From IMG/VR virus record IMGVR_UViG_3300027518_000022, positions 1 through 35,478 of that record: a stretch of 35,478 bases of DNA; one strand, 5' to 3'. The notes under the pieces were generated by a model. The model was not told where the DNA came from. It did not search any database and worked only from the letters and a program-made list of their open reading frames with translations. Of the stretch, positions 1-35,478 are shown one piece after another (the stretch's first letter is position 1; every line of letters begins with the position of its first letter). Made by a program: the position numbers and the translations under genes. Source of the stretch: a virus (lineage: Duplodnaviria > Caudoviricetes).

Positions 1-104
1 CGGTTTGAGGCGTGGCAAATGATCGAGTGCATGGAGCGGAATCCAACTGCCTTTGAGACAAATCACCCGGGCGAGAATCAGATTATTGATCTCTCCGCAA
101 ACAC
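1..104. repeat. 104-bp exact direct repeat, copy 1 (copy 2 at 33507-33610)
   Basis: cggtttgagg...ctctccgcaaacac is identical at both places; the copies diverge immediately afterwards (taaagc vs ccaagc). Confidence 0.95.
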
Positions 105-132
105 TAAAGCGCAGGCAACCCAGCCCGAATGA
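1..132 (+). CDS. 5'-truncated second copy of the 33384..33626 hypothetical gene, with a different C-terminus (...SANTKAQATQPE*)
   Basis: Frame 1 translates RFEAWQMIECMERNPTAF...IIDLSANT, identical to ORF 33384. TGA at 130-132 overlaps ATG at 129. Confidence 0.8.
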   Translation, partial: RFEAWQMIECMERNPTAFETNHPGENQIIDLSANTKAQATQPE

Positions 133-196
133 CTGAGATGGAAAACAGAAACGACAAAGTAGAGGGCGGGGTTGCCGCTGCCGCGATTTGTTCGCA
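96..196 (-). mobile_element. attC-like recombination site 1
   Basis: CGCAAAC, 6 nt, arm gcgcaggcaacccagccc ... arm gggcggggttgccgctgccgc with unpaired extra bases, 5 nt, GTTCGCA. Confidence 0.8.
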
Positions 197-488
197 GAAG
201 CGAGCGACCCCGGACGCCCATCGCGCCATCACTCGCGGAGCCAACGAGTGTTGGTATCGGTTCGTGATCCGACAAAAGAATGAAGTCGAAAAGATGGAAC
301 TCGAACGGGACAGGCTCAGGGATGCAATCCCCCTGCTCCAGGACCTCGCTGTTTATTTTGGGGAATCGTGCTGTCATCCCTTGGCTGTGCGGGTCCGAGA
401 ATTTCTTTCTGCGAACACCGCAACGATGGCAGGCGATGAAATCGCCTTGCCATCCGTGCATGGTTCTGCGGCCCGAATTTCAGATTGA
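129..488 (+). CDS. Cassette-borne hypothetical protein (119 aa)
   Basis: ORF starts inside site 1 and runs through site 2; short coiled-coil-like stretch (EVEKMELERDRLRDAIPLLQDL). Confidence 0.65.
   Translation: MTEMENRNDKVEGGVAAAAICSQKRATPDAHRAITRGANECWYRFVIRQKNEVEKMELERDRLRDAIPLLQDLAVYFGESCCHPLAVRVREFLSANTATMAGDEIALPSVHGSAARISD
410..469 (-). mobile_element. attC-like recombination site 2 (60 bp)
   Basis: TGCGAAC, 6 nt, acgatggcaggcgat, GAA loop, atcgccTtgccatCcgt, 5 nt, GTTCTGC. ttctgcgaac (407-416) is the reverse complement of gttcgcagaa (190-199). Confidence 0.9.
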
Positions 489-523
489 ACCCTGTTACAC
501 GAAAGACCAAACCCTGTTGAATT

Positions 524-970
524 ATGACTGAAGAAGAACTGAAAAAAGAGCTAGGACTTGAGCGAGTCAGGAGAATAAAGGCTGAGAATGACGCTGTTTT
601 ACAGAGCATCCAAGTCGAGCTTTTAAAGCAGGATCTCGGGACCATTCGCCGAATCATTGGAAAGGGTGGAAGCGCCGTCGATGTTCTTGCGTTTCTCGAT
701 ACCCCTAATTCTTTCCTTCCAGGCGAAATCAACGAGGACGACGCCGACATGATCGCCAGAATCTCCGGCGCGGTAATTTCAAAAGACTGGCGAAAATTCG
801 CCGAACTCGTCGTCGAGGCTCCAGACATTGATGTAGTCGGGAAAGCAAACGTCGCGATCAAGTGGATTGCGGAGGCGGCGATTGAAAAGCTCGGAAACTC
901 CAGCCAATCCAGACACCTTGAGGGCATCGTCGATCTGGCGATCATCTCGGAAAGAAATTCCCGCCTTTAG
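524..970 (+). CDS. Cassette-borne hypothetical protein (148 aa)
   Basis: ORF track. The stop TAG overlaps GCAGAAC (970-976), the complement of GTTCTGC at 463-469. Confidence 0.75.
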   Translation: MTEEELKKELGLERVRRIKAENDAVLQSIQVELLKQDLGTIRRIIGKGGSAVDVLAFLDTPNSFLPGEINEDDADMIARISGAVISKDWRKFAELVVEAPDIDVVGKANVAIKWIAEAAIEKLGNSSQSRHLEGIVDLAIISERNSRL

Positions 971-1004
971 CAGAACACGCGTTAGCCACAAAAACTTGTT
1001 TGCG
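970..1004 (-). mobile_element. Terminal, non-attC (attI-like or primary insertion) site of the array
   Basis: GCAGAAC acgc GTTAGCC acaaaaactt GTTTGCG. There is no full attC stem; GTTTGCG is the complement of CGCAAAC at 96-102. Confidence 0.5.
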
Positions 1005-1014
1005 AATCCCAAGC

Positions 1015-1371
1015 ATGACCGACAAGACCTTCCACACCGATCTGGACGATGCGATCCTAGACGGGTGGCAAGGTCCGGTGATGCTGCCGATCAACGGCGG
1101 GGAGGTCCACGTTCACGGGCGTCGGTGTCATGTTCGGAATGCCCGACGCGTGGCCTTCCTGCGGTTTGCTATGGGCCGGGGCAGGCTGGTAGCCGAGGAA
1201 CTCATGAGCCTGCTCGACATGGCAACCGGTAGCCAGGTGCATCAGTTCCTGCGGCAGTTGCAGTTTCAGCTATCGGTCGAGAAGTCGCACATCAGGCTGC
1301 AGCTCATCATGGATGGCCGCAGAGGATACTGGGTGGCGTTTGACAAAAGGAAAGGCAATGAGCATGATTAA
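1015..1371 (+). CDS. Hypothetical protein
   Basis: ORF track 1000..1371; ATG at 1015 preferred (MTDKTF...). Confidence 0.6.
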   Translation: MTDKTFHTDLDDAILDGWQGPVMLPINGGEVHVHGRRCHVRNARRVAFLRFAMGRGRLVAEELMSLLDMATGSQVHQFLRQLQFQLSVEKSHIRLQLIMDGRRGYWVAFDKRKGNEHD

Positions 1372-24224: not shown

Positions 24225-24553
24225 AAAGTTTCGAGCAAGCGTTCCGATCCGCGCAGGATGCCCTCGGCCTTGCTCATTACGACGTTCGCTTTTCGGTTGA
24301 GCCTGGTGCGGGAAATTACGCTAGCATCGAACCGGACCCAGCATCCTGCACTGCGATCTGCCGCGTTGATGTTGAGCTTTGCGAGCGAGAGCAGCAAACG
24401 GAGCAGGTCGCCGCGCATGAGGTTTTGCATCTCCTTCTTGCGGAGCTTCGCCATGCCGCGTCAATCTCAGACGAGACTGCGGACTGGGTCGAGGAGCAGA
24501 CCGTGCGGAAAATAGAGGCGGTGGTTTTTAAGGGGCTGTTCACGCAAACGTGA
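24221..24553 (+). CDS. Small HExxH protein (putative metallopeptidase fold)
   Basis: AAHEVLHLLL followed by a downstream EE. Confidence 0.6.
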   Translation: MKSFEQAFRSAQDALGLAHYDVRFSVEPGAGNYASIEPDPASCTAICRVDVELCEREQQTEQVAAHEVLHLLLAELRHAASISDETADWVEEQTVRKIEAVVFKGLFTQT

Positions 24554-24810
24554 ACGTAAGACGAATGAGTTGCCTTTGCTCGCCTGTCCTTGGCTTTGTC
24601 TGCGCGCAGCATCGCGGACGAGAGCAATGCCCGTGGGATCCTGACGACCTGCCGGGGCGTCTGCGCGGATTCGGGCATCGCGGAGCCGATCAAGATGGAT
24701 ACGACGGCTCAGAGTGGATCTGGCCGCAGGAGGATTTCGAGGCTCAGATTATCGAGGCGGCTCGCGTGCTCCTCGATGCGGTCGAGATCGAGGTGGCAGA
24801 AGGGTTTTAA
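24550..24810 (+). CDS. Hypothetical protein
   Basis: GTG start overlapping the previous stop; ends just before the T-rich intergenic region. Confidence 0.4.
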   Translation: MNVRRMSCLCSPVLGFVCAQHRGREQCPWDPDDLPGRLRGFGHRGADQDGYDGSEWIWPQEDFEAQIIEAARVLLDAVEIEVAEGF

Positions 24811-24849
24811 GGTTTTTTGCAAAAAAACGTTTCTGGTGGTTTTTTTTGT

Positions 24850-24878
24850 TTGACGTGTAAACCGAGTTGTGGCAATCT
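24850..24878 (+). promoter_or_regulatory. Putative early sigma70 promoter
   Basis: TTGACG-17 nt-CAATCT with TG extension and A/T tracts upstream; ATG 6 nt after the -10. Confidence 0.65.
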
Positions 24879-24884
24879 CTCGCC

Positions 24885-25067
24885 ATGGCAACACCAGAAC
24901 CTAAAACGGTTGCAACCAAGCTCGACGAGGATTCCCTTGTCGGCCTTGGGCGCGTAGCCGAAGAGACGGGCCTCAAAATCGCCGACCTGTTAAGAATTGC
25001 AGTTCGTGAGTTTTTGGCCAAATACAACGAGACCGGGAAGCTTGAGCTTGGAAAGGGGGCAGTATGA
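24885..25067 (+). CDS. Ribbon-helix-helix (CopG/Arc-like) regulator
   Basis: KTVATKLDEDSLVGLGRVAEETGLKIADLLRIAVREFL pattern; first gene of the early operon. Confidence 0.7.
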   Translation: MATPEPKTVATKLDEDSLVGLGRVAEETGLKIADLLRIAVREFLAKYNETGKLELGKGAV

Positions 25068-25333
25068 ACATTCTTCAAAATCGCAAAGAGGACAACCTCC
25101 GCGCACGCATGGCGGAGTTTTTCGACTTTTCAACAGTCGACACCGTGCAGGACATCATCAACCGCGCTTTTGAGGCCGGAGTCGCGGCCAAAAGCGATGC
25201 GGACTTCTTCGCAATAGAGGACGCGCTCCGCCGCGCTCGCGCTCGCTACGAGGCCCAGCGCCGCACTGAGCCCGTTGCGTTCCTCGACGTTGAGCCTGGA
25301 ACCTTAATTAAGTTGGCCGTCCATGAACTTTGA
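25064..25333 (+). CDS. Hypothetical protein
   Basis: ORF track; ATGA overlap. Confidence 0.6.
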   Translation: MNILQNRKEDNLRARMAEFFDFSTVDTVQDIINRAFEAGVAAKSDADFFAIEDALRRARARYEAQRRTEPVAFLDVEPGTLIKLAVHEL

Positions 25334-25420
25334 TCCCATCGACTTCATCATCAAGCTGCTGACGACGCTCGCCGTCTTCGCAGTTTGGAACGTCCCGGCC
25401 CTTTTCGATCTGATCTGGCC

Positions 25421-25621
25421 ATGATTCCACATTCCGTTTCCGGTATCGTGAAACGATACCTCCTCGACGGTCCAAACGCTGAAACGCTTGTGACAATCGA
25501 GATCGAGCGGTCCGAAGTCGTCGCGGTCATCGACAACGAAACTGGCGAGGAACTCCCGGTCGAGTCGATTGGACGGCGTGACTACGACTATGCCATCGAC
25601 TTTCTTATTACCCGAATTTGA
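25421..25621 (+). CDS. Hypothetical protein
   Basis: Internal ATG of ORF 25385..25621. Confidence 0.55.
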   Translation: MIPHSVSGIVKRYLLDGPNAETLVTIEIERSEVVAVIDNETGEELPVESIGRRDYDYAIDFLITRI

Positions 25622-25622
25622 T

Positions 25623-25865
25623 ATGAACATCGAACAACTGTTGGCAGTGCATGAGCGCGAAACTGACGCTCTCCTTGCTGAAATCCGCGCCTTCCGCCGT
25701 CGCAAGCGTGAGTCCTGCGACCATCTGATCTATGACGGCCTCGCTGTCCAGGTGCGCATGCTCAAAAACCTAGGCATCCGGCTCAACGCCGTCGATGCCA
25801 TCGAGGAGGAGCTTTACGGGCTGGCGCTTGACATTTTTCCCGATAACGGGCAGGGGCGCGACTGA
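25623..25865 (+). CDS. Hypothetical protein
   Basis: MNIEQLL start 1 nt after the previous stop. Confidence 0.6.
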   Translation: MNIEQLLAVHERETDALLAEIRAFRRRKRESCDHLIYDGLAVQVRMLKNLGIRLNAVDAIEEELYGLALDIFPDNGQGRD

Positions 25866-25896
25866 TACGCGGAATAACAAAAAAAGAAAACCAACA

Positions 25897-26073
25897 ATGG
25901 CAAACAAAAACACACTTCGCCTTCGTCGCTTGATGGAATCCAGCCGCAAAACTGGCGCGGCAATGGTCACGGAAAACAACCACAAGTGGAAGGGCGAGAA
26001 GACATCGGATTACGACAAGATTGTAGGCGCAATCCGCGAACAAACTCGCCGCCTCTACGGGCGATCCGCCTAA
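25897..26073 (+). CDS. Small basic hypothetical protein
   Basis: ATG after an A-rich leader. Confidence 0.5.
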   Translation: MANKNTLRLRRLMESSRKTGAAMVTENNHKWKGEKTSDYDKIVGAIREQTRRLYGRSA

Positions 26074-26126
26074 CCCGTTCAGCACAAAACCGGGCCGCGC
26101 ATGGTAAAAACGCGGAATAAAAAGAG

Positions 26127-26891
26127 ATGACTACAGAAATCGCAAAACAAGAACCGCCGCGAACCATCAAGGCGCTAATCAATACGGATGCAGTCCGCCA
26201 GCAAATCGCTCGCGCACTGCCTTCCCACATGACGCCGGATCGTTTCCTGCGTGTCGCTACTACGCTTCTCCTGCGCTCTCCCAAGCTCGCGGAATGCTCG
26301 CAAGAGAGCTTCATGCGAGCGATGCTCGACTGCTCATCGCTGGGCCTTGAGCCTGACGGGCGGCGCTGCCACCTCATCCCCTATGGTAAAGAGGTTCAGC
26401 TTATCGTTGACTGGAAAGGCCTTGTCGAACTGGCGAAACGATCCGGTGAGGTCGTCGCATGGAAGGCCGAGACGGTAAAGGAAAACGATTCCTTTGAGTG
26501 GATCAACGGAGAGATCAGCCATTCGGTCAACTGGCGGGAAGATCGCGGCAAGCTCCAGGCGGTCTATTCAATCGTCAAAATGACCAACGGCGACATCGAC
26601 ACCGAGGTCATGACGTTGGCCGAGGTCGAAGCGATTCGCAAACGCTCTAAAGCGAGCGGATCCGGCCCATGGGTCACTGATTTCGAGGAGATGGCCAAAA
26701 AGACGGTGATTCGCCGCCACAGCAAGCGCCTGACGCTTTCGCCTGAGTTCCACGACGCGCTCGAGAAGGACGGCGATAAGCTCGCTGACATCTATGTCAA
26801 CCGCGCCGCCAACGAGGCCGCGAAGGTTTCGTTCTCGCAGCCCGCTATTGAGGCGGAATCTGAAATCGTTGAAAAAGGAGGTGAGGCATGA
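26127..26891 (+). CDS. recT: RecT-family single-strand annealing recombinase
   Basis: ALPSHMTPDRFLRVA, LGLEPD, HLIPYG, WKGLVELAKRSG, GPWVTDFEEMAKKTVIRR. Confidence 0.93.
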   Translation: MTTEIAKQEPPRTIKALINTDAVRQQIARALPSHMTPDRFLRVATTLLLRSPKLAECSQESFMRAMLDCSSLGLEPDGRRCHLIPYGKEVQLIVDWKGLVELAKRSGEVVAWKAETVKENDSFEWINGEISHSVNWREDRGKLQAVYSIVKMTNGDIDTEVMTLAEVEAIRKRSKASGSGPWVTDFEEMAKKTVIRRHSKRLTLSPEFHDALEKDGDKLADIYVNRAANEAAKVSFSQPAIEAESEIVEKGGEA

Positions 26892-27697
26892 ATACCACGC
26901 TTTACCATGACGGTGTCGAGGTTTCTTTTGAAACTACCTCCCGCGAAATCTGCGAGGCGTGGCTGGCAACATTGCCAGAGTTTCAGCGAGCCGTGAAATT
27001 CCGCGCGGTGCAAATGATGGCTAGAGACATGGTGAATGATCGCTGGGTTTTCACCGGAGATTCAATCCGCTTTGACTCTAACGGCCATTTGATTGACGGT
27101 CAGCATCGGCTGCTCGCGTTCCTGCAAGCTGATTTTTTCCCAATTGTCCTAGTGATTCGCGGATTGAAATCTCAGGTCTACTTTGCAATCGACGGAGGAA
27201 CGAGCAGAACTTACGCGGACGCATTTAAATACGCAGGGGTTTCCGCATATACGACAACGTCCAGTGTTGCGAGAATGTGGCTCAGTTACGCTGATGGGAA
27301 AAATCTAGGAAATCACCGATTTTCAAAGGCTGAGGCGCTTGAAGCATACGATCAGCACGCTGATTCTATTCACTGGGCAATCGAACGCTGGAATGTGCTA
27401 GAAGGATTGTTGAGCAAAGTGCGAAAAACATTTCTGGCATCATTGGCGCTTGAGCGAATCGGACCCGCGAAAACTGAGTCATTCTTTTTCGCTCTTGAAA
27501 GCGGAATCGGCAGTGCTGCGGCAATTGCCTTCAGAAAACTGCTCATCCGTGAATCTAACAAGACTAGGGGTAAATTGAGTCAGTCAGAACTGGCGGCACT
27601 AGGAATCAAAGCAATAAAAGCGCACGCAGAAAATAAGCCCATTTCGTTGCTTAAATGGGTCTCCGAAGAAGTATTCCCACACCTTGAAAAGCAATGA
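26888..27697 (+). CDS. ParB/Srx-like DGQHR-motif protein
   Basis: MARDMVNDRWVFTGDSIRFDSNGHLIDGQHRLLA; ID-G-R motif downstream. Confidence 0.65.
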   Translation: MNTTLYHDGVEVSFETTSREICEAWLATLPEFQRAVKFRAVQMMARDMVNDRWVFTGDSIRFDSNGHLIDGQHRLLAFLQADFFPIVLVIRGLKSQVYFAIDGGTSRTYADAFKYAGVSAYTTTSSVARMWLSYADGKNLGNHRFSKAEALEAYDQHADSIHWAIERWNVLEGLLSKVRKTFLASLALERIGPAKTESFFFALESGIGSAAAIAFRKLLIRESNKTRGKLSQSELAALGIKAIKAHAENKPISLLKWVSEEVFPHLEKQ

Positions 27698-28125
27698 AAG
27701 AATTTTCCATCTATCACCGGGACCGATTTGGGAAGGCCGCGACTATCCGATTCAACCTCGCCGCAGTCAGGCGCCTTCTCCCAGAGTATCAAATCACGGG
27801 CTTTGGCCTGACGACTCGCCAGCGAACCAAAATGCAAAGGCGCGTCAATCTCTACGTTGGCCTTGGGGGCAAATGCGATTTCCAGACGGGCATCGACGCT
27901 TCCGAGGAGCGTGTCATTCCCGCCCGAATCATCCCGGCAAAAGACGCAAAGATGGTTCGCGGGAAAATGGTCCCGGCATCTAAGCGCGAGGTCATACCGG
28001 CACGGATCGAGCCGGCTAAACCGGAGATCCTTCCGAGTATCAACCACCTGCCAAACGATGACATCCTAGACAGGGCGCTTCGTCTCGACTTTGCAACCAA
28101 ACCCAGAACGCTCGCATCAGCATGA
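27694..28125 (+). CDS. Hypothetical protein
   Basis: ATGA overlaps on both sides; repeated (V/I)IPA motif. Confidence 0.6.
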   Translation: MKEFSIYHRDRFGKAATIRFNLAAVRRLLPEYQITGFGLTTRQRTKMQRRVNLYVGLGGKCDFQTGIDASEERVIPARIIPAKDAKMVRGKMVPASKREVIPARIEPAKPEILPSINHLPNDDILDRALRLDFATKPRTLASA

Positions 28126-28754
28126 AAGAATTTCCAGACTGCACAATCTACCATTGCGAGCAACGCTCCGAGGAGTGGCACGACCTTCGCCGTGGAGTAT
28201 TGACCGCATCGAACTTCGGTCCTTGGCTGATCAACTCGGGCAAGGTCGCGGAACAAGCTCGCGAGCGTGCGATCTGTAAACTGATCGCTGAACGCGCAAA
28301 CTGCGAGTCCGCTCCAAACTACGAAAACTGGGCAATGCAACGCGGCACTGAACTGGAACCGCAGGCAGTTGCTGCTTTCGAGGGCGAGACCGGGATCAAG
28401 GTCGTGGATGTCGGATTCTGCCTGTCCAAATTCGGGAACTTCGGATGCTCACCGGATGGTCTTATTGTTGGTCAGTCTGTCGGTTTCGAGGGCAAAGTCC
28501 CTGTTCCCGAAACGCATATTCGCTACCGTCGCGCAAACGAACTGCCGGAAGAATATCGTTTCCAAATTTATGGCAGCATGGCCGTGACGGGCGCAACAGC
28601 GTGGCATTTCCAAAGCTGGAATCCCGGTCTCGCGCCGCTCCGCATCCTTGTCGAGCGGGATGAGTTTACCGAAAAGCTCAAAGCCGCGTTGATTTCGTTC
28701 TCGGAGCAATACGAGGAAGCGTGGGAGCAGGAGATTGCTGCAAACAAACGATGA
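28122..28754 (+). CDS. YqaJ/lambda-exonuclease family protein
   Basis: EQRSEEWHDLRRGVLTAS, MQRGTELEP, GCSPDGL, EGKVP. Confidence 0.9.
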   Translation: MKEFPDCTIYHCEQRSEEWHDLRRGVLTASNFGPWLINSGKVAEQARERAICKLIAERANCESAPNYENWAMQRGTELEPQAVAAFEGETGIKVVDVGFCLSKFGNFGCSPDGLIVGQSVGFEGKVPVPETHIRYRRANELPEEYRFQIYGSMAVTGATAWHFQSWNPGLAPLRILVERDEFTEKLKAALISFSEQYEEAWEQEIAANKR

Positions 28755-29068
28755 AACAATCCCCCACTGCTCGCAGTCTGGCTCACCTCCGAAAAACCTG
28801 CCAACTGGTCCAAGTTGTTGAGCGGTGGAACTCCTTCACCAAAACCCGACACGATCTCTTCGGCATCATCGACATCCTCGCGATCCGCGACGGTGATACG
28901 GTTGCGGTGCAATCAACGAGCTGGAGCAACACAAAAAGCCGCATCAACAAAATGACAGAGTCGGATGCGCTACCGCATCTGCGAGCCGCCGGATGGATCT
29001 TGCTGGTCCACGGTTGGAAGAAGAACAAAAACGGAAAATACGAAGTTAAGGAAATCGACATATCATGA
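28751..29068 (+). CDS. Small PD-(D/E)xK-type nuclease (putative resolvase)
   Basis: VERWNSF, DLFGIIDILAI, VAVQSTS, VHGWKK. Confidence 0.6.
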   Translation: MKQSPTARSLAHLRKTCQLVQVVERWNSFTKTRHDLFGIIDILAIRDGDTVAVQSTSWSNTKSRINKMTESDALPHLRAAGWILLVHGWKKNKNGKYEVKEIDIS

Positions 29069-29610
29069 ATCAAAAATACAAAATTGTTGACGGGCGTTGC
29101 GTTGCGATACGCGATTTTGGCGATGTAAAAACTGGCGATGTTGGTGGTCGCCTAGAGACAGAAAGGAATTTGTCTCATCACGGAGACTGCTGGGTCTATG
29201 GCGATGCGCGGGTCTCTGGCAATGCGCGGGTCTATGGCAATGCGTGGGTCTTTGGCGATGCGTGGGTCTTTGGCGATGCGCGGGTCTCTGGCAATGCGCG
29301 TGTCTTTGGCGATGCGCGGGTCTTTGGCGATGCGCGTGTCTTTGGCGATGCGCGTGTCTTTGGCGATGCGCGGGTCTCTGGCGATGCGTGGGTCTCTGGC
29401 GATGCGTGGGTCTCTGGCGATGCGTGGGTCTCTGGCAATGCGCGGGTCTCTGGCAATGCGCGGGTCTCTGGCGATGCGTGGGTCTATGGCGATGCGTGGG
29501 TCTCTGGCGATGCGTGGGTCTTTGGCAATGCGCGGGTCTTTGGCGATGCGTGGGTCTCTGGCAATGCGCGGGTCTTTGGCGATGCGCGGGTCTATGGCGA
29601 TAAAAACTGA
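29065..29610 (+). CDS. Hexapeptide-repeat (left-handed beta-helix) protein
   Basis: DVKTGDVGGRLETERNLSHHGDCWV followed by about 22 G(D/N)A(R/W)V(S/F/Y) repeats. Confidence 0.88.
   Translation: MNQKYKIVDGRCVAIRDFGDVKTGDVGGRLETERNLSHHGDCWVYGDARVSGNARVYGNAWVFGDAWVFGDARVSGNARVFGDARVFGDARVFGDARVFGDARVSGDAWVSGDAWVSGDAWVSGNARVSGNARVSGDAWVYGDAWVSGDAWVFGNARVFGDAWVSGNARVFGDARVYGDKN
29191..29601 (+). repeat. 18-bp coding tandem repeat
   Basis: Unit GGC RAT GCG YGG GTC THT repeated without spacers. Confidence 0.95.
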
Positions 29611-29626
29611 AAGAAATCGACATATC

Positions 29627-29806
29627 ATGAAAGACTACGCAATCGCATTACTCTGCCTCGTCACCGGACTTGGCTACGGACTCGCCTTCTACTTTGCCCT
29701 CGAAATGGGCGAGCAGAGGGATGAGAAAGATCGAGCCATCGCAGAATTGACTGAGGTCAGGGTTATGGCGGAATGGAGCAAGTTTGAAGAGGGGAGGGCG
29801 AAATGA
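29627..29806 (+). CDS. Small membrane-anchored hypothetical protein
   Basis: MKDYAIALLCLVTGLGYGLAFYFAL. Confidence 0.6.
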   Translation: MKDYAIALLCLVTGLGYGLAFYFALEMGEQRDEKDRAIAELTEVRVMAEWSKFEEGRAK

Positions 29807-30018
29807 GCGTTTCCGACTTCCTCGAAATGCCGGATGAAGTCCCGCAATGGAAACGAGACGCCGCGCAAATGGGCATCACGACGTTCTATGTTTTCGACAT
29901 GGCAGACTCATATTGGGAAGCCAGCATTGACTGGTTTGGTGATGTTGAGACCCAGTGCGGTGAGACTGAGCGTGAGGCCGTGAATTCGCTGATGTTTAAA
30001 CTGAAACTGGACGCATGA
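29803..30018 (+). CDS. Hypothetical protein
   Basis: ORF track; ATGA overlap. Confidence 0.6.
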   Translation: MSVSDFLEMPDEVPQWKRDAAQMGITTFYVFDMADSYWEASIDWFGDVETQCGETEREAVNSLMFKLKLDA

Positions 30019-30105
30019 CGGAACTTTCACTTTTCATCCTCTTCGCGATCCTGACTGCGGTTGCAATGATCGACGGAGTTCTTAAACAATAACCCGATAC
30101 AATAG

Positions 30106-30477
30106 ATGACAACAAAAGAAGCGATACAAAAACTAGAACCATACAACGCATGGATGAACGGCCATGGCCAATCCACAATGCCGGGACCGAAGGAAATTGT
30201 CGCGGCGATTCAATTCGCAGCTGAAGCTCTAAGGCAAATGCAAAAGCTTGAAGCGGTTTATAATGGAATTGATCCCGAAGGCTGGATTACCCATGAGCCA
30301 GGTGATCGCTTGCCGGTCGAGGAAAACGAACGGGTTGAAGTGCAATTGCGAAATGGGGAAACGTTCTCAGCCTTCCCTGCTTATTTTTGGGGATTGCCTG
30401 GCGGATTCTTTTCGATGTGGGAAGTGCTGCCGGAAAATCACGATGCTGAAATCGTAGCATGGAGGAGGCCGCGATGA
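30106..30477 (+). CDS. Hypothetical phage protein
   Basis: GWITHEPGDRLPV...VEVQLRNG...EIVAWR pattern seen in small phage early proteins. Confidence 0.65.
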   Translation: MTTKEAIQKLEPYNAWMNGHGQSTMPGPKEIVAAIQFAAEALRQMQKLEAVYNGIDPEGWITHEPGDRLPVEENERVEVQLRNGETFSAFPAYFWGLPGGFFSMWEVLPENHDAEIVAWRRPR

Positions 30478-30797
30478 GCAATTCTTTTATCAAAGACTTG
30501 TCGCTTTCCATCTCTCGGATTGAAGCGGCTTACGGCAATGCTGACGCATGGCCCAGAGTTTGCAAGACCCACCTGGAGCTTTTGACAGAGCTTGCACAAA
30601 GCCCTCGACCACTGCATCTCGGGGAGATTCAAGCGACCAGCAATATGGTCCCTTCCTGCGCTCAAGTCACGCTCAGTGCGCTTGCTGGATTGCTGGCAAT
30701 ACATTCGGCCCCGGTTACCATTCGGCGCGAGCGTGTAGCAATGCCAAAAACAGGCCGATGGGCCTATTTTTACCGCCTCGCTAAAGTAGAGGATTGA
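30474..30797 (+). CDS. Hypothetical protein, possible winged helix
   Basis: ORF track; ends ...GRWAYFYRLA. Confidence 0.5.
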   Translation: MSNSFIKDLSLSISRIEAAYGNADAWPRVCKTHLELLTELAQSPRPLHLGEIQATSNMVPSCAQVTLSALAGLLAIHSAPVTIRRERVAMPKTGRWAYFYRLAKVED

Positions 30798-30811
30798 TTA
30801 AAAGATTGGCG

Positions 30812-30868
30812 TTGCCATCCACTCTCGTTTTGTTGAACCTTTACGTAACGCTTCACCGTTACAGTAAC
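30812..30868 (+). promoter_or_regulatory. Seventh copy of the promoter motif plus iteron-like operators upstream of the initiator
   Basis: TTG at 30812, CGTTTTGTTG at 30826; GTAACGC at 30845, GTTAC at 30858, GTAAC at 30864. Confidence 0.55.
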
Positions 30869-30871
30869 ATC

Positions 30872-31753
30872 ATGCCAAACTACACAAAGCTTTTCAATTC
30901 CATCGTGACTTCCACAATCTGGACCGAAGATGACAAGACGCGGATCGTCTGGATCACGATGCTGGCGATTGCGGACCAAAATGGCGAGGTGCAGGCATCC
31001 ATACCTGGGCTGGCCAGATTGGCGGCGGTTAGCATCAGTGACGCCGAAATGGCCATCGCCAAGTTCCTTGGGCCTGACCCTTACTCGCGAACTCCTGATA
31101 ATGACGGGCGGCGAATTGCCAAGATTGACGGGGGCTGGGAGCTTTTGAACCACGCCAAATACCGCAGGATGGCAAGTTTGGCCGAGGCCAAGGAGGCCAA
31201 TGCTGAGCGGCAACGACGCCACCGCGAGCGTAACGCCCCCGTAACGCATAGTAACGCCTCCGTAACGCACCGTAACGCTACCGTAACGCCTCAGACCGAC
31301 AAAGCAGAAGCAGAAGCAGAAGCAGATACAAAAGAAAATAAGAGCGGCAAAGCCGCATCGGCGAACAAGTCGCCTCTTTCTTTCCCAGATTCATTTTCTG
31401 AGAATCGGAAACAGACTTTCCTCCTCTGGGCAAAGCACAAGGCAGAAAAGGGTCAAAGCTACAAGCCCACCGGATGGGAGCAGCTATTGAGCAGTCTCGA
31501 CAACATGACCGATGCCGAGCTTGACCAAGCAGTGAGGCATTCGATGGCTATGAACTATCAAGGCATCTTCCCGGCTCCAAAGGGCGAGCAGAACCAGCAA
31601 GGCCAAGAAACAAAGCCCAAGCTCGCCACCGCCCCGGCCAACTGGCAGCAAACAGCCGAGGAGCTTTACGAGCAGAGCTTTGCCGGAATGGCGTGGGAAG
31701 CGATCACCCCAACGCAACGCGGACAGATCGCGATGCACATCAACCAGGCATGA
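30872..31753 (+). CDS. Replication initiator protein
   Basis: YTKLFNSIVTSTIW N-domain, NAERQRRHRER, internal iterons, AEAEAEAD linker, AMNYQGIF C-domain; lies directly before DnaB. Confidence 0.8.
   Translation: MPNYTKLFNSIVTSTIWTEDDKTRIVWITMLAIADQNGEVQASIPGLARLAAVSISDAEMAIAKFLGPDPYSRTPDNDGRRIAKIDGGWELLNHAKYRRMASLAEAKEANAERQRRHRERNAPVTHSNASVTHRNATVTPQTDKAEAEAEADTKENKSGKAASANKSPLSFPDSFSENRKQTFLLWAKHKAEKGQSYKPTGWEQLLSSLDNMTDAELDQAVRHSMAMNYQGIFPAPKGEQNQQGQETKPKLATAPANWQQTAEELYEQSFAGMAWEAITPTQRGQIAMHINQA
31230..31289 (+). repeat. Iterons of the putative replication origin
   Basis: GTAACGC at 31230, 31241, 31251, 31262, 31272, 31283. Confidence 0.8.
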
Positions 31754-33057
31754 GCGCGAACTACCCATCCGATCCAGACGCAGAGAGGGCAGTCCTGTCC
31801 TGCGCCCTGCAATGGCAAGACTGCTACGACAAGGTCGCCGCGCATCCATCGGGAGCCGATCTTTTCTACCTGCCCCATCACCGCCTCATCTGGAGCGCCA
31901 TGCTATCGGCCAAGCTCAGCGCCGGGGGATTGGATCTCGTCACGCTCACATCGTCTCTCAGGGCGAGCGACGACCTCGACGCCGTGGGCGGGGCCGTAAT
32001 GCTCTCAGAATTGCTCTCAGACGTCCCCAGCCCCAAAATGCTGGCCGGATACCTCAAGACCGCCGAGAACGCCTCAAAACGCCGCAGAATCGCAAGGGAG
32101 TGCCATTCGCTAGCCGCAGATGCCTGCGACATGGGGAAGGACGTTGATGGTCTGGTCCAGAGGGCAGACTCAATCATCCAAGGACTCCTTCGGTCATCCA
32201 GCCAATCGAGGGCAAGGCGATGGAACGACGTTTTGGGTAAAACGCTTCAGCAGATCGACGATGCCAGAAGTGCCGGTGGAAGGATCCCCGGCCTGTCCAC
32301 GGGCTACGGATGCCTCGACTCTGCAACAAATGGCTATCAACCCGGCCAATTGTGGGTTGTCGCTGCTCGCCCTGGTGCTGGCAAGACCGCCCTCCTGATG
32401 TGCATGGTGCGCCACCTCGTCGAGGCCGATCACGCCACAGCCATCTTTTCCGCTGAGATGTTCGCCGAGGAGCTGGCGATTCGGGCAATCTCAGGCCAAA
32501 GCAAAATCGACTCTCTGAAACTCGCGAGCGGTAAACTCGACCGCATGGACTTTGGAAAGATCACATCGGCACTAGAGCAATCGACATCGTGGCCGCTATG
32601 GGTAGACGACCGTGCAGACATGCGCTTGGTTGACATCCAAGTTGGGGCGCGTAGACTCGTCAAAGAGGAGGCGGTCAAAGTGATATTTGTCGATTACCTG
32701 CAATTGATCAAAGAGCCAGACGGGAGCCGCAATCGAGAAGATGCCGTTCGCCGATTGTCTGATGGGTTTAAGCAACTGGCTAAAGAGCTTGGCATCACAA
32801 TTGTGGCATTGGCACAGCTCAACCGATCCAGTGAAAGGCGAGAAGGCAGGAAGCCCGTCGTTTCCGATTTGCGAGACTCTGGGGCAATCGAGCAGGATGC
32901 GAACGTGATCCTCCTACTCAACCCGCAGGAATCTGAGGCCGACGAGGATGCTGTCGATGTCGAGCTGATCGTGGCCAAGTGTCGCGGTGGCAGACTTGGA
33001 GCTTTGGAATTTGGATTCAACAAACCGACAACGACTTTTTACCCCAAACAAAAATGA
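31750..33057 (+). CDS. dnaB: Replicative DNA helicase
   Basis: DAERAVL, AARPGAGKT, FSAEM, VDYLQL, LAQLNR, DLRDSGAIEQDA. Confidence 0.95.
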   Translation: MSANYPSDPDAERAVLSCALQWQDCYDKVAAHPSGADLFYLPHHRLIWSAMLSAKLSAGGLDLVTLTSSLRASDDLDAVGGAVMLSELLSDVPSPKMLAGYLKTAENASKRRRIARECHSLAADACDMGKDVDGLVQRADSIIQGLLRSSSQSRARRWNDVLGKTLQQIDDARSAGGRIPGLSTGYGCLDSATNGYQPGQLWVVAARPGAGKTALLMCMVRHLVEADHATAIFSAEMFAEELAIRAISGQSKIDSLKLASGKLDRMDFGKITSALEQSTSWPLWVDDRADMRLVDIQVGARRLVKEEAVKVIFVDYLQLIKEPDGSRNREDAVRRLSDGFKQLAKELGITIVALAQLNRSSERREGRKPVVSDLRDSGAIEQDANVILLLNPQESEADEDAVDVELIVAKCRGGRLGALEFGFNKPTTTFYPKQK

Positions 33058-33347
33058 GAACAGCAAACATCAACGTAACCAAGATCGACAAGACCGCCCT
33101 TTACGAAGGCAAAAACGGCAAATACCTGAGCCTGGTCTTCTTTGATAACAAAGACGGGCCAGACCAATTCGAGAACGATGGCTTCGTGACTCAAGACTTG
33201 GGCAAGGAGCGCCGCATGGCAGGAGAGAAAGGGCCGATCATCGGCAACTGGAAGGAAGTTGGAACTAAGGGGCCGACTCCTGCGCCAACCAGACAGGAAA
33301 GCTCCGTGATTGTTTCCATTGAGGATGACTCTTCAATCCCTTTTTGA
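33054..33347 (+). CDS. Putative single-stranded DNA-binding protein
   Basis: INVTKIDK...GKYL core and acidic C-terminal tail EDDSSIPF. Confidence 0.65.
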   Translation: MRTANINVTKIDKTALYEGKNGKYLSLVFFDNKDGPDQFENDGFVTQDLGKERRMAGEKGPIIGNWKEVGTKGPTPAPTRQESSVIVSIEDDSSIPF

Positions 33348-33383
33348 TTAACGGTATTTGCGAACTAAACACCAGAGAATACT

Positions 33384-33626
33384 ATGAACAATAACCCACA
33401 AAAAGGAACCGCTACACGCAAGGCTGGCGGATGGCATCCGACGCTGGAATATACCAACGGAGGACGGTTGATCGGCGCTATAAGTTTTTGGACTGAGGAC
33501 CAAGCTCGGTTTGAGGCGTGGCAAATGATCGAGTGCATGGAGCGGAATCCAACTGCCTTTGAGACAAATCACCCGGGCGAGAATCAGATTATTGATCTCT
33601 CCGCAAACACCCAAGCTGACCTATGA
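33384..33626 (+). CDS. Hypothetical protein whose 3' end is the cassette insertion point
   Basis: Ends ...SANTQADL* here and ...SANTKAQATQPE* in the copy at 1-132. Confidence 0.7.
   Translation: MNNNPQKGTATRKAGGWHPTLEYTNGGRLIGAISFWTEDQARFEAWQMIECMERNPTAFETNHPGENQIIDLSANTQADL
33507..33610. repeat. 104-bp exact direct repeat, copy 2
   Basis: Identical to 1-104. Confidence 0.95.
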
Positions 33627-33700
33627 CCACCGCGCCAACAGACTCCGAATCCACTGAAACCGCCGACGCGGTGGGCATTAGGTCCAGCGCCTTGTTCGGG
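33602..33700 (-). mobile_element. attC-like recombination site (99 bp)
   Basis: CGCAAAC, 6 nt, gctgacctatgaccaccgcg ... cgcggtgggcatTaggtCcagc, 5 nt, GTTCGGG. The complementary GCCCGAAC is at 34694-34701. Confidence 0.88.
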
Positions 33701-34549
33701 CTTTTTGATCCACCACCGGCGACCAAATACAACTTCCTGTCTCTCGGGGCAGGGGTGCAATCCTCAACACTGGCACTCATGGCCGCGCATGGCGAAATCG
33801 GCCCGATGCCGGATGCCGCAATCTTCGCGGACACGCAGGCAGAACCGGAGAGCGTCTATCGCTGGCTCGACTGGCTGGAAAAGCAACTGCCCTTCCCGGT
33901 GCATCGCGTGAGCAAAGGCAATCTCACTGAGGTTGCGCTGACGATCCGCCAGAGGAAAGACGGAACGGGGCAATGGGCAAAAAGCCTGATTCCGGCATAC
34001 ACGTTGGAACCGGACGGCACAGCAGGGCACATGGGGCGAGCTTGCACATACGACTACAAGCTCTTACCGCTTCTGTCGGCCCAGCGAAAACTTGCCGGAA
34101 TCAAGCGGGCACAAAAAGAATGCACGGTCACAAGCTGGATTGGAATAAGCTACGACGAAATCCAGCGAATGAAGAACAGCCGGGAACCGTGGGTGCAACA
34201 CCGCTTCCCGCTTATCGAGCGCAAGATGCGGCGGCAGCAATGTTTGGAATGGATGGAAGTGAAAGGCTACCCGAAGCCACCAAGGTCCGCTTGCGTGTAT
34301 TGTCCTTATCACGGAAATCGTGAATGGCGACGGCTACGGGACGAGGAACCGCAGGAGTTCGCACGCGCCATCAAGTTTGAGAAAGACTTACAGGCCGCAA
34401 AATCGCAAACCGACAACATGCGCGGCGTTCCCTACCTCCACCCGTCCCGTGTGCCACTGGAGCAAGTGGACCTGCGCGACCCCGACGAAAACCAGATGCA
34501 ACTATGGAACACAATGCAAAACGAGTGCGAAGGAATGTGCGGCGTATGA
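33623..34549 (+). CDS. Cassette-borne PAPS-reductase-like (adenine nucleotide alpha-hydrolase) protein
   Basis: LSLGAGVQSS loop, AIFADTQAEP, RACTYDYK, WIGISYDE, FPLIE, PPRSACVYCPY, C-terminal CEGMC. Confidence 0.8.
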   Translation: MTTAPTDSESTETADAVGIRSSALFGLFDPPPATKYNFLSLGAGVQSSTLALMAAHGEIGPMPDAAIFADTQAEPESVYRWLDWLEKQLPFPVHRVSKGNLTEVALTIRQRKDGTGQWAKSLIPAYTLEPDGTAGHMGRACTYDYKLLPLLSAQRKLAGIKRAQKECTVTSWIGISYDEIQRMKNSREPWVQHRFPLIERKMRRQQCLEWMEVKGYPKPPRSACVYCPYHGNREWRRLRDEEPQEFARAIKFEKDLQAAKSQTDNMRGVPYLHPSRVPLEQVDLRDPDENQMQLWNTMQNECEGMCGV

Positions 34550-34755
34550 TCCCACAAGAAAAACTCCCGCGTGAAGCCCGAGAAGCTATCAACGAGGAAA
34601 TCGACTGCTGGGAGACGCCAGACAGTCCCGAAGCCTTTTGTTTTGCGATGAAACACTTGATGATTCTCCGTGACAAAATCGACGCGATTCTTTGCCCGAA
34701 CACCCGTGAATTTGTCCCATCAGCACCCACTCCACCCGCTTTTCAAAAGGCTTAA
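34546..34755 (+). CDS. Cassette-borne small hypothetical protein
   Basis: ATGA overlap with the previous gene; reads through CCCGAAC as P-N. Confidence 0.55.
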   Translation: MIPQEKLPREAREAINEEIDCWETPDSPEAFCFAMKHLMILRDKIDAILCPNTREFVPSAPTPPAFQKA

Positions 34756-34759
34756 TTAT

Positions 34760-35080
34760 ATGAAACATAAAAACGCATTTATTTTTTCAATGGGGGATTT
34801 GAAAAAGTTCCATCAAGCGAAGCGCGGGCGGCTGGTCGAAATGCACGGGGCGGATCGCGTCAGGCGTGCGGAGGAGCTAGCAAAGGTTACTGCTGCTTCG
34901 GTTGAAGAATGGCTGCAATACTCTCCTGAATATTTCGATTTGAGTTATGAGCAAGCCGGATTTCAAAGGTTCGCAATCGCTTCGGAATTGAAACGGGCCA
35001 AATGGGATGCCGGATATTGGGCCGGTTTGGCGATCTTGCTTTTTTTGGGCTGGCTACTCGACAGGATTTTGAATTTTTGA
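34760..35080 (+). CDS. Hypothetical protein with C-terminal hydrophobic segment
   Basis: MKHKNAF start; TGA abuts GCCGAAC at 35081. Confidence 0.6.
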   Translation: MKHKNAFIFSMGDLKKFHQAKRGRLVEMHGADRVRRAEELAKVTAASVEEWLQYSPEYFDLSYEQAGFQRFAIASELKRAKWDAGYWAGLAILLFLGWLLDRILNF

Positions 35081-35229
35081 GCCGAACGGCGGCGGTGAGG
35101 TGGCCCCCTGAAAGGGGGCTTGCTCTCCACTGTGTGTTGCCCGGTCGCGACCGAACTAGATTTGAAATGAATACCTCACCGAAAACCGAACCAGAGAGTG
35201 GAGAGCCCACCTCACCGCCGCCGTTGCCC
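35081..35229 (-). mobile_element. Atypical/composite attC-like site
   Basis: GCCGAAC at 35081; GTTGCCC at 35136 and 35223; perfect 19-bp inverted repeat 35085-35103 / 35207-35225. Confidence 0.6.
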
Positions 35230-35406
35230 GGACGGAGGTGCCCCTCGTGCAAAGGCACGGGATGGGTAATGCGACACTCATCACATGCGACCCACCCTAT
35301 CGGGTGTCACGCGTGTGGGGGCACCGGAGAGCGGAGAGAGCGAAGCGACCGGAGCGATCCGGGCAACACCACTACGCAGGGAGGGCGAAGCCCTTCCCTG
35401 CCGTGA
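35167..35406 (+). CDS. Cassette-borne small zinc-ribbon protein (two CxxCxGxG motifs)
   Basis: CPSCKGTG and CHACGGTG; starts inside the hairpin and ends inside the next site. Confidence 0.65.
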   Translation: MNTSPKTEPESGEPTSPPPLPGRRCPSCKGTGWVMRHSSHATHPIGCHACGGTGERRERSDRSDPGNTTTQGGRSPSLP

Positions 35407-35415
35407 ATGTTCTGC
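35361..35415 (-). mobile_element. attC-like recombination site (55 bp)
   Basis: GGGCAAC, 6 nt, acgcagggagggc, GAA loop, gcccTtccctgcCgt, 4 nt, GTTCTGC. tccgggcaac is the complement of gttgcccgga (35223-35232). Confidence 0.85.
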
Positions 35416-35427
35416 GTTTCGATTAAG

Positions 35428-35478
35428 ATGAAAAGATACGATCCAATCCAATACCTCTCGCAAGGCGGCTCTGCTTAT
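35428..35478 (+). CDS. 3'-truncated ORF of a further cassette
   Basis: MKRYDPIQYLSQGGSAY... open to the window end. Confidence 0.35.
   Translation, partial: MKRYDPIQYLSQGGSAY

Follow-up and report, generated by a model that had tools for sequence, protein, structure and literature searches.

What kind of genetic element places a row of integron-like hairpins among the genes of a virus, each hairpin standing in front of a gene rather than behind it, and are genes indeed exchanged there? The question was raised by a stretch of 35,478 bp, analyzed here at its full length and referred to as the window, which is a single viral contig (record G000); the original prediction, made from its letters, was a phage-borne array of attC-like cassettes oriented oppositely to ordinary integron cassettes. 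Family searches of the contig revealed a lambda-type portal and terminase, a capsid-protease fusion, a tape measure protein, RecT, a YqaJ-family exonuclease and a DnaB helicase. For many of the 55 scanned ORFs there was no family match, and the closest terminases of cultured phages were just 32-33% identical. A gene at 29065-29610 encodes YdcK beta-solenoid hexapeptide repeats. Search of genome contigs for the host, with the pattern of the E-type hairpin and with the helicase, gave zero matches.

The first 104 bases of the window repeat positions 33507-33610, the divergence beginning two bases after AAC; thus the two ends of the window form one locus with a single array, and one left flank opens onto two different cassettes (Table 1). 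In its shortest form the genome seems to be a closed circle of about 33.5 kb; CheckV rates the record as linear and 41% complete, so that a part of the genome may still be missing. The locus is located downstream of the helicase gene and of an SSB-like gene, whose sole family match (phrog_24909) is of unknown function. The last codons of the adjoining 80-aa gene vary with the first cassette. A promoter and terminator scan of 24500-35478 gave results at chance level.

Table 1. Features of the array, its flanks and the recombination genes of the window (spacers are given as nucleotides after AAC/before GTT; a hyphen within a core marks the position of its AAC).
Feature	Position	Strand	Remarks
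Left flank L, assembly duplicate	1..104	+	Copy of 33507-33610; branch point L to A or L to B
attC-type site A	96..196	+	6/5 spacers
Cassette A	100..413	+	Gene 129-488, reading through site F
attC-type site F	410..469	+	6/5; extra C and T
Cassette F	414..973	+	Gene 524-970, 148 aa, without family
Fixed right-end site	970..1004	+	AAC at 974, GTT at 998
118-aa conserved gene, right anchor	1015..1371	+	Without family
RecT gene	26127-26891		Family search
YqaJ-family exonuclease gene	28122-28754		Family search
SSB-like gene, conserved left anchor	33054..33347	+	Name suggested by position and sequence
80-aa gene	33384..33626	+	Fixed left core CGCA-AAC inside its 3' end
attC-type site B	33602..33700	+	6/5 spacers; extra C and T, right arm
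Gene B, PAPS-reductase-like	33623..34549	+	phrog_424, E 1.7e-48
Small second ORF of block B	34546..34755	+	Block end CCCG-AAC, 34695-34701
Putative collapsed site relic	34699..34720	+	No fold; apparently similar to both ends of E-type hairpin
Gene C, 106 aa	34760..35080	+	Without family; GCCG-AAC comes next
attC-type site D, short fold	35081..35142	+	6/4, extra C
Cassette D, 280 bp	35085..35364	+	Gene from 35167, CXXCXGXG zinc-finger-like
attC-type site E	35361..35415	+	6/4
Gene E, start only	35428..35478	+	Cut at contig end

All five hairpins that had been predicted are bounded by AAC and GTT, and the eight seven-mers named with them lie where they were placed (8/8). The predicted spacers were likewise found, 6/5 at 100-192, 414-465 and 33606-33696 and 6/4 at 35365-35411, as were the extra bases on the right arm, the one nearest to the core being C in 13 of 13 aligned sites. 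According to the accessible part of the supplement of PMC9892861, the bottom strand of the aadA7 attC site has a 6-nt spacer after AAC, a 5-nt spacer before GTT and an extra base on the 3' arm; measured by this spacer criterion, sites A, B and F have the 6/5 layout, and E and the short fold of D have 6/4. Inverted R boxes with conserved AAC/GTT occur in all 13 aligned sites, and on their 3' arm the extra C is invariant and a T near-invariant, the C standing where the usual base is G, a change of the extrahelical base which, as far as the available text of PMC2727003 goes, IntI1 tolerates. The hairpins are thus attC-type sites. Since their anatomy is, apart from C for G, that of the aadA7 bottom strand, the plus, coding strand is the attC bottom strand, and consequently each site stands in front of its gene. 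Several hairpins contain start codons, among them that of gene A (129) in site A and that of gene B in site B; a gene whose start codon falls within a long hairpin could not leave its site behind.

The prediction was only partly right about 35081-35229: a perfect inverted repeat is present, but it is bulge-free, and the attC-like fold is 35081-35142 (6/4, extra C). The most stable fold of D has no bulges; the bulged fold would have to compete with the perfect 19-bp inverted repeat that lies over site D. Folding as single-stranded DNA, which had been proposed as a check for each site, gave z-scores below 0 throughout (200 shuffles each: -2.4 for A, -4.3 for F, -1.8 for B, -2.7 for E, -8.4 for 35081-35229). 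By these values single sites stand modestly above chance, as 12 of the 200 shuffles of site B fold as well as the site itself. No hairpin was found by this folding at 34699 (z +1.1) or at 974 (z +1.0).

A looser first hairpin detector did not discriminate (5 matches vs 0-4 in 12 shuffles), and the loose versions were set aside in favor of a stricter geometry detector and a covariance model. The strict detector, which misses A and D, yielded three matches in the window, all within the array, vs a mean of 0.13 (max 1) in 60 shuffles. In an alignment of 13 sites of the window and related phages (4 of 17 gathered sites and site D were left out for bad alignment), 91.7% of the cells are paired and 10 of the 11 stem pairs show two-sided changes; none of 500 shuffles was as good and slid controls reached 33-48%, the structure having been derived from the same sequences on which it was tested. 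The home-made covariance model built from these aligned sites (R1) has four matches in the window, all on the plus strand and all four belonging to its training set. It misses the sites of phage TJE1 and scores those of H101 and MW202573 at E 0.3-4.5; the model is therefore family-specific, and its blanks are not absences. An Rfam scan of the window gave one chance-level match and nothing relevant. Comparison of site B with cultured phages was discarded, as it produced chance matches only.

Complementarity between the seven-mers that open and close each block had been advanced as an argument for reverse orientation. The rule itself holds: the match is 4/4 in 19 of 21 blocks, and 82 of 84 outer bases are complementary vs a mean of 48.6 and a maximum of 66 in 10,000 permutations. 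Ordinary cassettes obey it too, so it supports cassette status and not orientation, and as an orientation test it was dropped as non-discriminating. The orientation is deduced from the geometry of spacers and bulges and from the junctions. Instead of the canonical layout, in which a top-strand gene is followed by attC, the genes are on the bottom strand with the site upstream. Among 50 site copies, 15 pairs have the left flank alone in common and 17 share hairpin and right flank, with no pair (0) sharing left flank and hairpin only, or the right flank only, which places the crossover at the left AAC in 32 pairs and at the right GTT in none, the pairs not being independent. In this comparison 12 of 13 'hairpin-only' pairs are terminal sites whose right flanks were compared out of register, and the left coordinate of one row (L083) is off. 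In one pair (L021/L054), hairpins 93% identical to each other precede different genes, a pattern that crossover on the right-hand side could produce as well.

Alternative junctions within one population bear directly on these points. In contigs from three samples of one study (X1, X2 and X3), cassette D is skipped by a joint from 35084 to 35365, the two sides sharing just the three letters AAC; the depths of this joint are 14.6, 20.1 and 4.6, its short side in X3 being 114 letters long. A joint from 33605 to 35365 was detected in X1 only. Shared sequence at the five skip-type junctions amounts to 3, 6, 5, 6 and 6 nt and includes AAC in all of them. The absence of junctions at AAC had been named in advance as a finding that would speak against the array; the alternative junctions do fall within AAC, and the joint between C and E is bounded to it. 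Assembled contigs present the orders L-A-F-R (L002), L-G-F-R (L033), L-B-C-D-E-F (L148) and D-E-A-F-R (L150); possibly the window itself derives from X1, and L148 and L150 may not be independent of it. Skip joints and differing assemblies together demonstrate loss and gain of cassettes. Position 33610 is a loose end in X1, and the L-A join is spanned independently by L002. Cassette A occurs behind L or behind E, and cassette F behind A, behind an E allele or behind another cassette (L033); gene E is complete in L148 and L150, with F or A behind it. In X1, X2 and X3 there are loose ends at which A runs into an E-type hairpin, and in X1 the end of E is likewise joined to A; these loose ends suggest true reordering, with A before an E-type unit, the molecules being unphased. 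No circle (go-back) junction is listed in the contigs of the runs examined.

Gene C lacks its own site, and no relative of it was found in viral contigs, so that an intact C cassette was not recovered; its depth in X1 (35.5 over 34756-35087 vs 15.3 over block B) implies a second, unseen upstream context. In X1, two alleles at about equal depth are observed at 1170-1890 and 33100-33290. This sample therefore holds at least two strains, and some of the junctions could be inherited alleles, not ongoing events.

Variable genes between the same flanks, which the original prediction had expected in related phages, were found there: the number of other cassettes ranges from none to two, and they join at the left AAC throughout. 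In 14 of 46 loci with the SSB-like gene, the right anchor gene follows within about 130 bp, and these 14 loci therefore have no cassette; four of six cassette-free loci inspected retain a decayed hairpin. In L009, L012, L014 and L017 the decayed E-type hairpin between the SSB-like gene and the homologue of ORF 1015 has lost its GTT, a dead site being kept. One family (L018/L019, L021/L022, L043) combines a common left flank and right-end site with three different hairpin-plus-gene inserts. In another series, empty L028 is a single intact site, and filled L029, L032 and L058 have one or two cassettes at its left AAC, the insertions leaving the terminal hairpin whole. Relatives of ORF 1015 were found in 18 loci, mostly known records, and the new one inspected (L182) has no cassette. 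The claims of reverse orientation, of crossover at the left AAC and of a site-specific gene-shuffling locus in a phage are thus borne out, the first two by alternative junctions, which contigs and related phages both display, the last by content and neighbors that vary within one population and between relatives. At the same locus L020 has an inserted gene without attC sites (L020:5144-5563), HNH/resolvase-like by eye. In L030 (2484-2581) a site with ATC replacing the left AAC stands before an MT-A70 gene and is probably fixed in place.

Sites of the same kind occur beyond this locus. A homologue of gene B with 88% nucleotide identity lies in a reversed array at a different locus, behind an exonuclease gene (L068). 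In 80 loci with B homologues the model gave 13 matches, all on the gene strand, most loci having none. A 43-kb record rated complete (G004) has eight model matches and no PF00589 match; its seven-site chain matches in 6 of 6 blocks. Among 24 cargo proteins, which were picked by hand and are not an unbiased sample, ten have Pfam matches: eight methyltransferases, one PAPS reductase and one Lar.

Which enzyme would recombine these sites? No tyrosine recombinase or integrase was found in the 35,478-bp window by family searches and ORF scan, and PF00589 matches 3 of 22 related records. In one of these three, G009, an IntI-like gene lies directly behind a reversed cassette with a B homologue (61% amino acid identity), its own frame departing near the C-terminus; relatives 62-100% identical to it were found in 19 viral loci. 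All 12 full-length IntI-like proteins tested have TIGR02249 as their best family, three of them scoring above the cut-off; identity to IntI1 is 36.8%. The R, K, H-x-x-R, H and Y positions, which we take to be the catalytic motif of IntI-like proteins, are invariant in the eight that were aligned. One IntI homologue carries the label Caldilinea in a MAG (cluster look-up). In all 14 loci examined, a core AAC-N5-TT/AT precedes the intI start codon by 29-53 bases. In L158-L174 the attI-like sites, 30-55 bases upstream of intI, include a second, AAC-N4-GTT-like element close before the start of that gene, which may be a repressor box or another site for the integrase. The proposed search with an attC model, done here with R1, bore fruit in that the same site family adjoins IntI-like genes in other phages: 14 of 18 IntI-bearing records searched contain such sites, mostly upstream of intI and ending at the attI-like site, and 43 of 46 matches at E<=5 in intI loci are on the intI strand, duplicates included. 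In 9 of 13 loci the last cassette detected is directly complementary to the attI-like core; in three more the complementary 7-mer lies further on, at a site that escaped detection. Judged by their sequences, the IntI-bearing loci are complete integrons with the usual intI-attI-attC polarity and flipped genes. Terminase was confirmed in 4 of the 18 IntI-bearing records with the one Pfam family searched.

The right-end site of the window is fixed at the position where attI would be, with the genes pointing towards it, not away, and it is conserved in a contig from another study (X7), which is the one examined of 16 small-share runs (X5-X20) that carry no weight as habitat evidence. Against the phage attI profile it ranks 8 of 1060 AACs with 0.7 bits vs 7.4-18.7 for leave-one-out values, a weak match, and its reading as a proven attI was rejected on this account. 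Its last 7-mer is complementary to the left flank, so a collapsed attC is possible instead; by its letters the site may be regarded as a candidate attI or as a collapsed attC.

Considering that no tyrosine recombinase was found in the window and that an IntI-like integrase with the same site family is present in other viral loci, recombination by IntI acting in trans is likely. With good confidence we regard the locus as an integron-type cassette array in the early-gene region of a phage, in which a hairpin and the gene behind it form a unit that is gained or lost at the left AAC, recombination being likely due to an integron integrase from outside the phage. At least two same-strand attC sites with no integrase nearby define a CALIN; the locus, in which no intI was found in cis, is one by definition and is neither a canonical cassette array nor a complete integron. 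A mechanism for the established site anatomy, polarity, crossover position and variable content might be as follows. The coding strand would fold as single-stranded DNA, and IntI supplied by the host or by a co-infecting IntI-encoding phage would cut between AA and C, excising or inserting circular cassettes; the promoterless cassette genes would be expressed by read-through from the upstream replication genes. More speculatively, if genes are co-directional with the replication fork, the coding strand would be the lagging-strand template, and shuffling would be increased; lagging-strand placement raises cassette excision according to the part of PMC5371416 available.

Could the same site-specific shuffling be the work of a recombinase other than IntI, either a Xer-like enzyme encoded by the host or by a different phage, or a protein of the window phage that went unrecognised? 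There is no IntI in the contig, many of its 55 ORFs are without a family, and one record (G007) has a single site with a non-IntI tyrosine recombinase about 8 kb away; but the 6/5 spacers and 3'-arm bulges are what IntI reads, and sites of this family stand next to IntI-like genes with an attI-like core, so we hold this to be unlikely. Somewhat less probable still is that the hairpins are decayed attC relics between which genes are swapped by the RecT/YqaJ system of the phage or by replication slippage. Homology-driven exchange would be expected to break within the similar stems, whereas the junctions share just 3-6 nt with AAC always included, and insertions into empty sites preserve the whole terminal hairpin; these observations outweigh the presence of RecT and the YqaJ-family exonuclease in the contig and the integrase-independent loss of small cassettes reported in the accessible text of PMC5371416.

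The least credible alternative, to which we give hardly any weight, explains the junctions as assembly chimeras of co-occurring strains and the hairpins as RNA regulatory structures over start codons. It could draw on the two strains at about 50/50 in X1, on the junction between E and F in L148, which resembles a hybrid of two hairpins, and on the start codons that several hairpins contain. A chimera would hardly recur as the D-skip joint does, in three samples and at the depths given above, separate viral contigs obey the same rule, and RNA hairpins give no account of 82/84 complementary outer bases across genes.

Clusters of attC sites without integrase are already known from phages, and five/six tested sites were recombined by IntI1 with preference for the bottom strand, as given in the available part of Qi et al. 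(2023; PMC9892861). The CALINs described there resemble the array of the window in that attC clusters lie in phage early regions, lack intI and have methyltransferase cargo. In the text seen of that paper the arrays of TJE1 and H101 are termed typical, with no word of reversed genes, gene arrows possibly being given in its Figure 2. When the published phage arrays were rechecked, TJE1 proved ordinary, H101 and one P12002L site (attC1) reversed, and MW202573 reversed by eye. The H101 sites active with IntI1 in the accessible portion of PMC9892861 have the bottom strand on the coding strand; the reversed P12002L attC1 gave no recombination there. Phage H101 (L067, 2400-4500), published as a typical array, has four attC sites, two of them identical, whose bottom strand is the coding strand. 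Unlike the CALINs in the consulted portion of PMC9892861, the window locus offers in-population junctions and an empty/filled series, and it is these, in an integrase-less phage, that it adds to the published phage attC clusters. In the literature searched, beyond whose reach most subscription papers lay, neither phage arrays with reversed genes nor this IntI group turned out to be described.

Integrons have been seen as devices of bacteria, and attC clusters in phages as scarce remnants. In the present case an integrase-less phage gains and loses cassettes with base-pair precision in natural populations, in a polarity that bacterial integrons avoid, and the matching integrase is carried by other phages. 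We lean slightly towards a broader view, in which environmental phages would run an integron economy of their own, with a phage-associated IntI clade and a pool of reverse-polarity phage-gene cassettes (DNA modification, anti-restriction) in which integrase-less phages, the one of the window included, would share in trans and which would undergo active reshuffling within a population; flipped polarity would place the recombining strand on the coding strand, supply the start codon from the site and keep genes silent if captured by a host integron. If confirmed, the gain and loss of cassettes at this locus would be a site-specific route to phage mosaicism and to exchange of DNA-modification genes. 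The locus offers substrates, namely named sites, an empty/filled series and candidate enzymes, for the study of strand choice and of the origin of new cassettes.

With bacterial integrons the phage arrays share the site anatomy, the AAC/GTT core and the complementary outer 7-mers of each cassette, and the IntI-bearing phages also the position of intI on the attC bottom strand beside an attI-like core. They differ in that the genes are on the bottom strand with the site 5' of the gene, often together with its start codon, that no intI was found in the window phage, which apparently lacks Pc as well, and that in IntI-bearing phages the genes run towards intI. The E-type site family is also present in ordinary orientation, in a 1.1-kb metagenome contig (L151) whose longest ORFs are on the top strand; no intI was found on this fragment. 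As described in the part seen of 10.1101/2022.09.11.507474 (SALINs/attG), short GWT sites outside integrons can receive cassettes through IntI, and arrays at new phage loci, L068 for example, may plausibly have arisen in this way; the loci studied here differ from the SALINs outlined there in being multi-cassette arrays of phage-type genes with one polarity. Inverted-integrase integrons of the Treponema type (10.1101/030866, accessible part) likewise have intI and cassette genes on one strand, but there intI is flipped relative to attC, whereas in the phage arrays the genes are flipped and intI has its usual polarity. In the virus Rctr41k (KX853513; L191, 3989-8760), an IntI-like gene is co-oriented with ordinary top-strand cassettes, by eye of the inverted-integrase type, which would represent a second way of aligning intI and cassettes with a phage operon.
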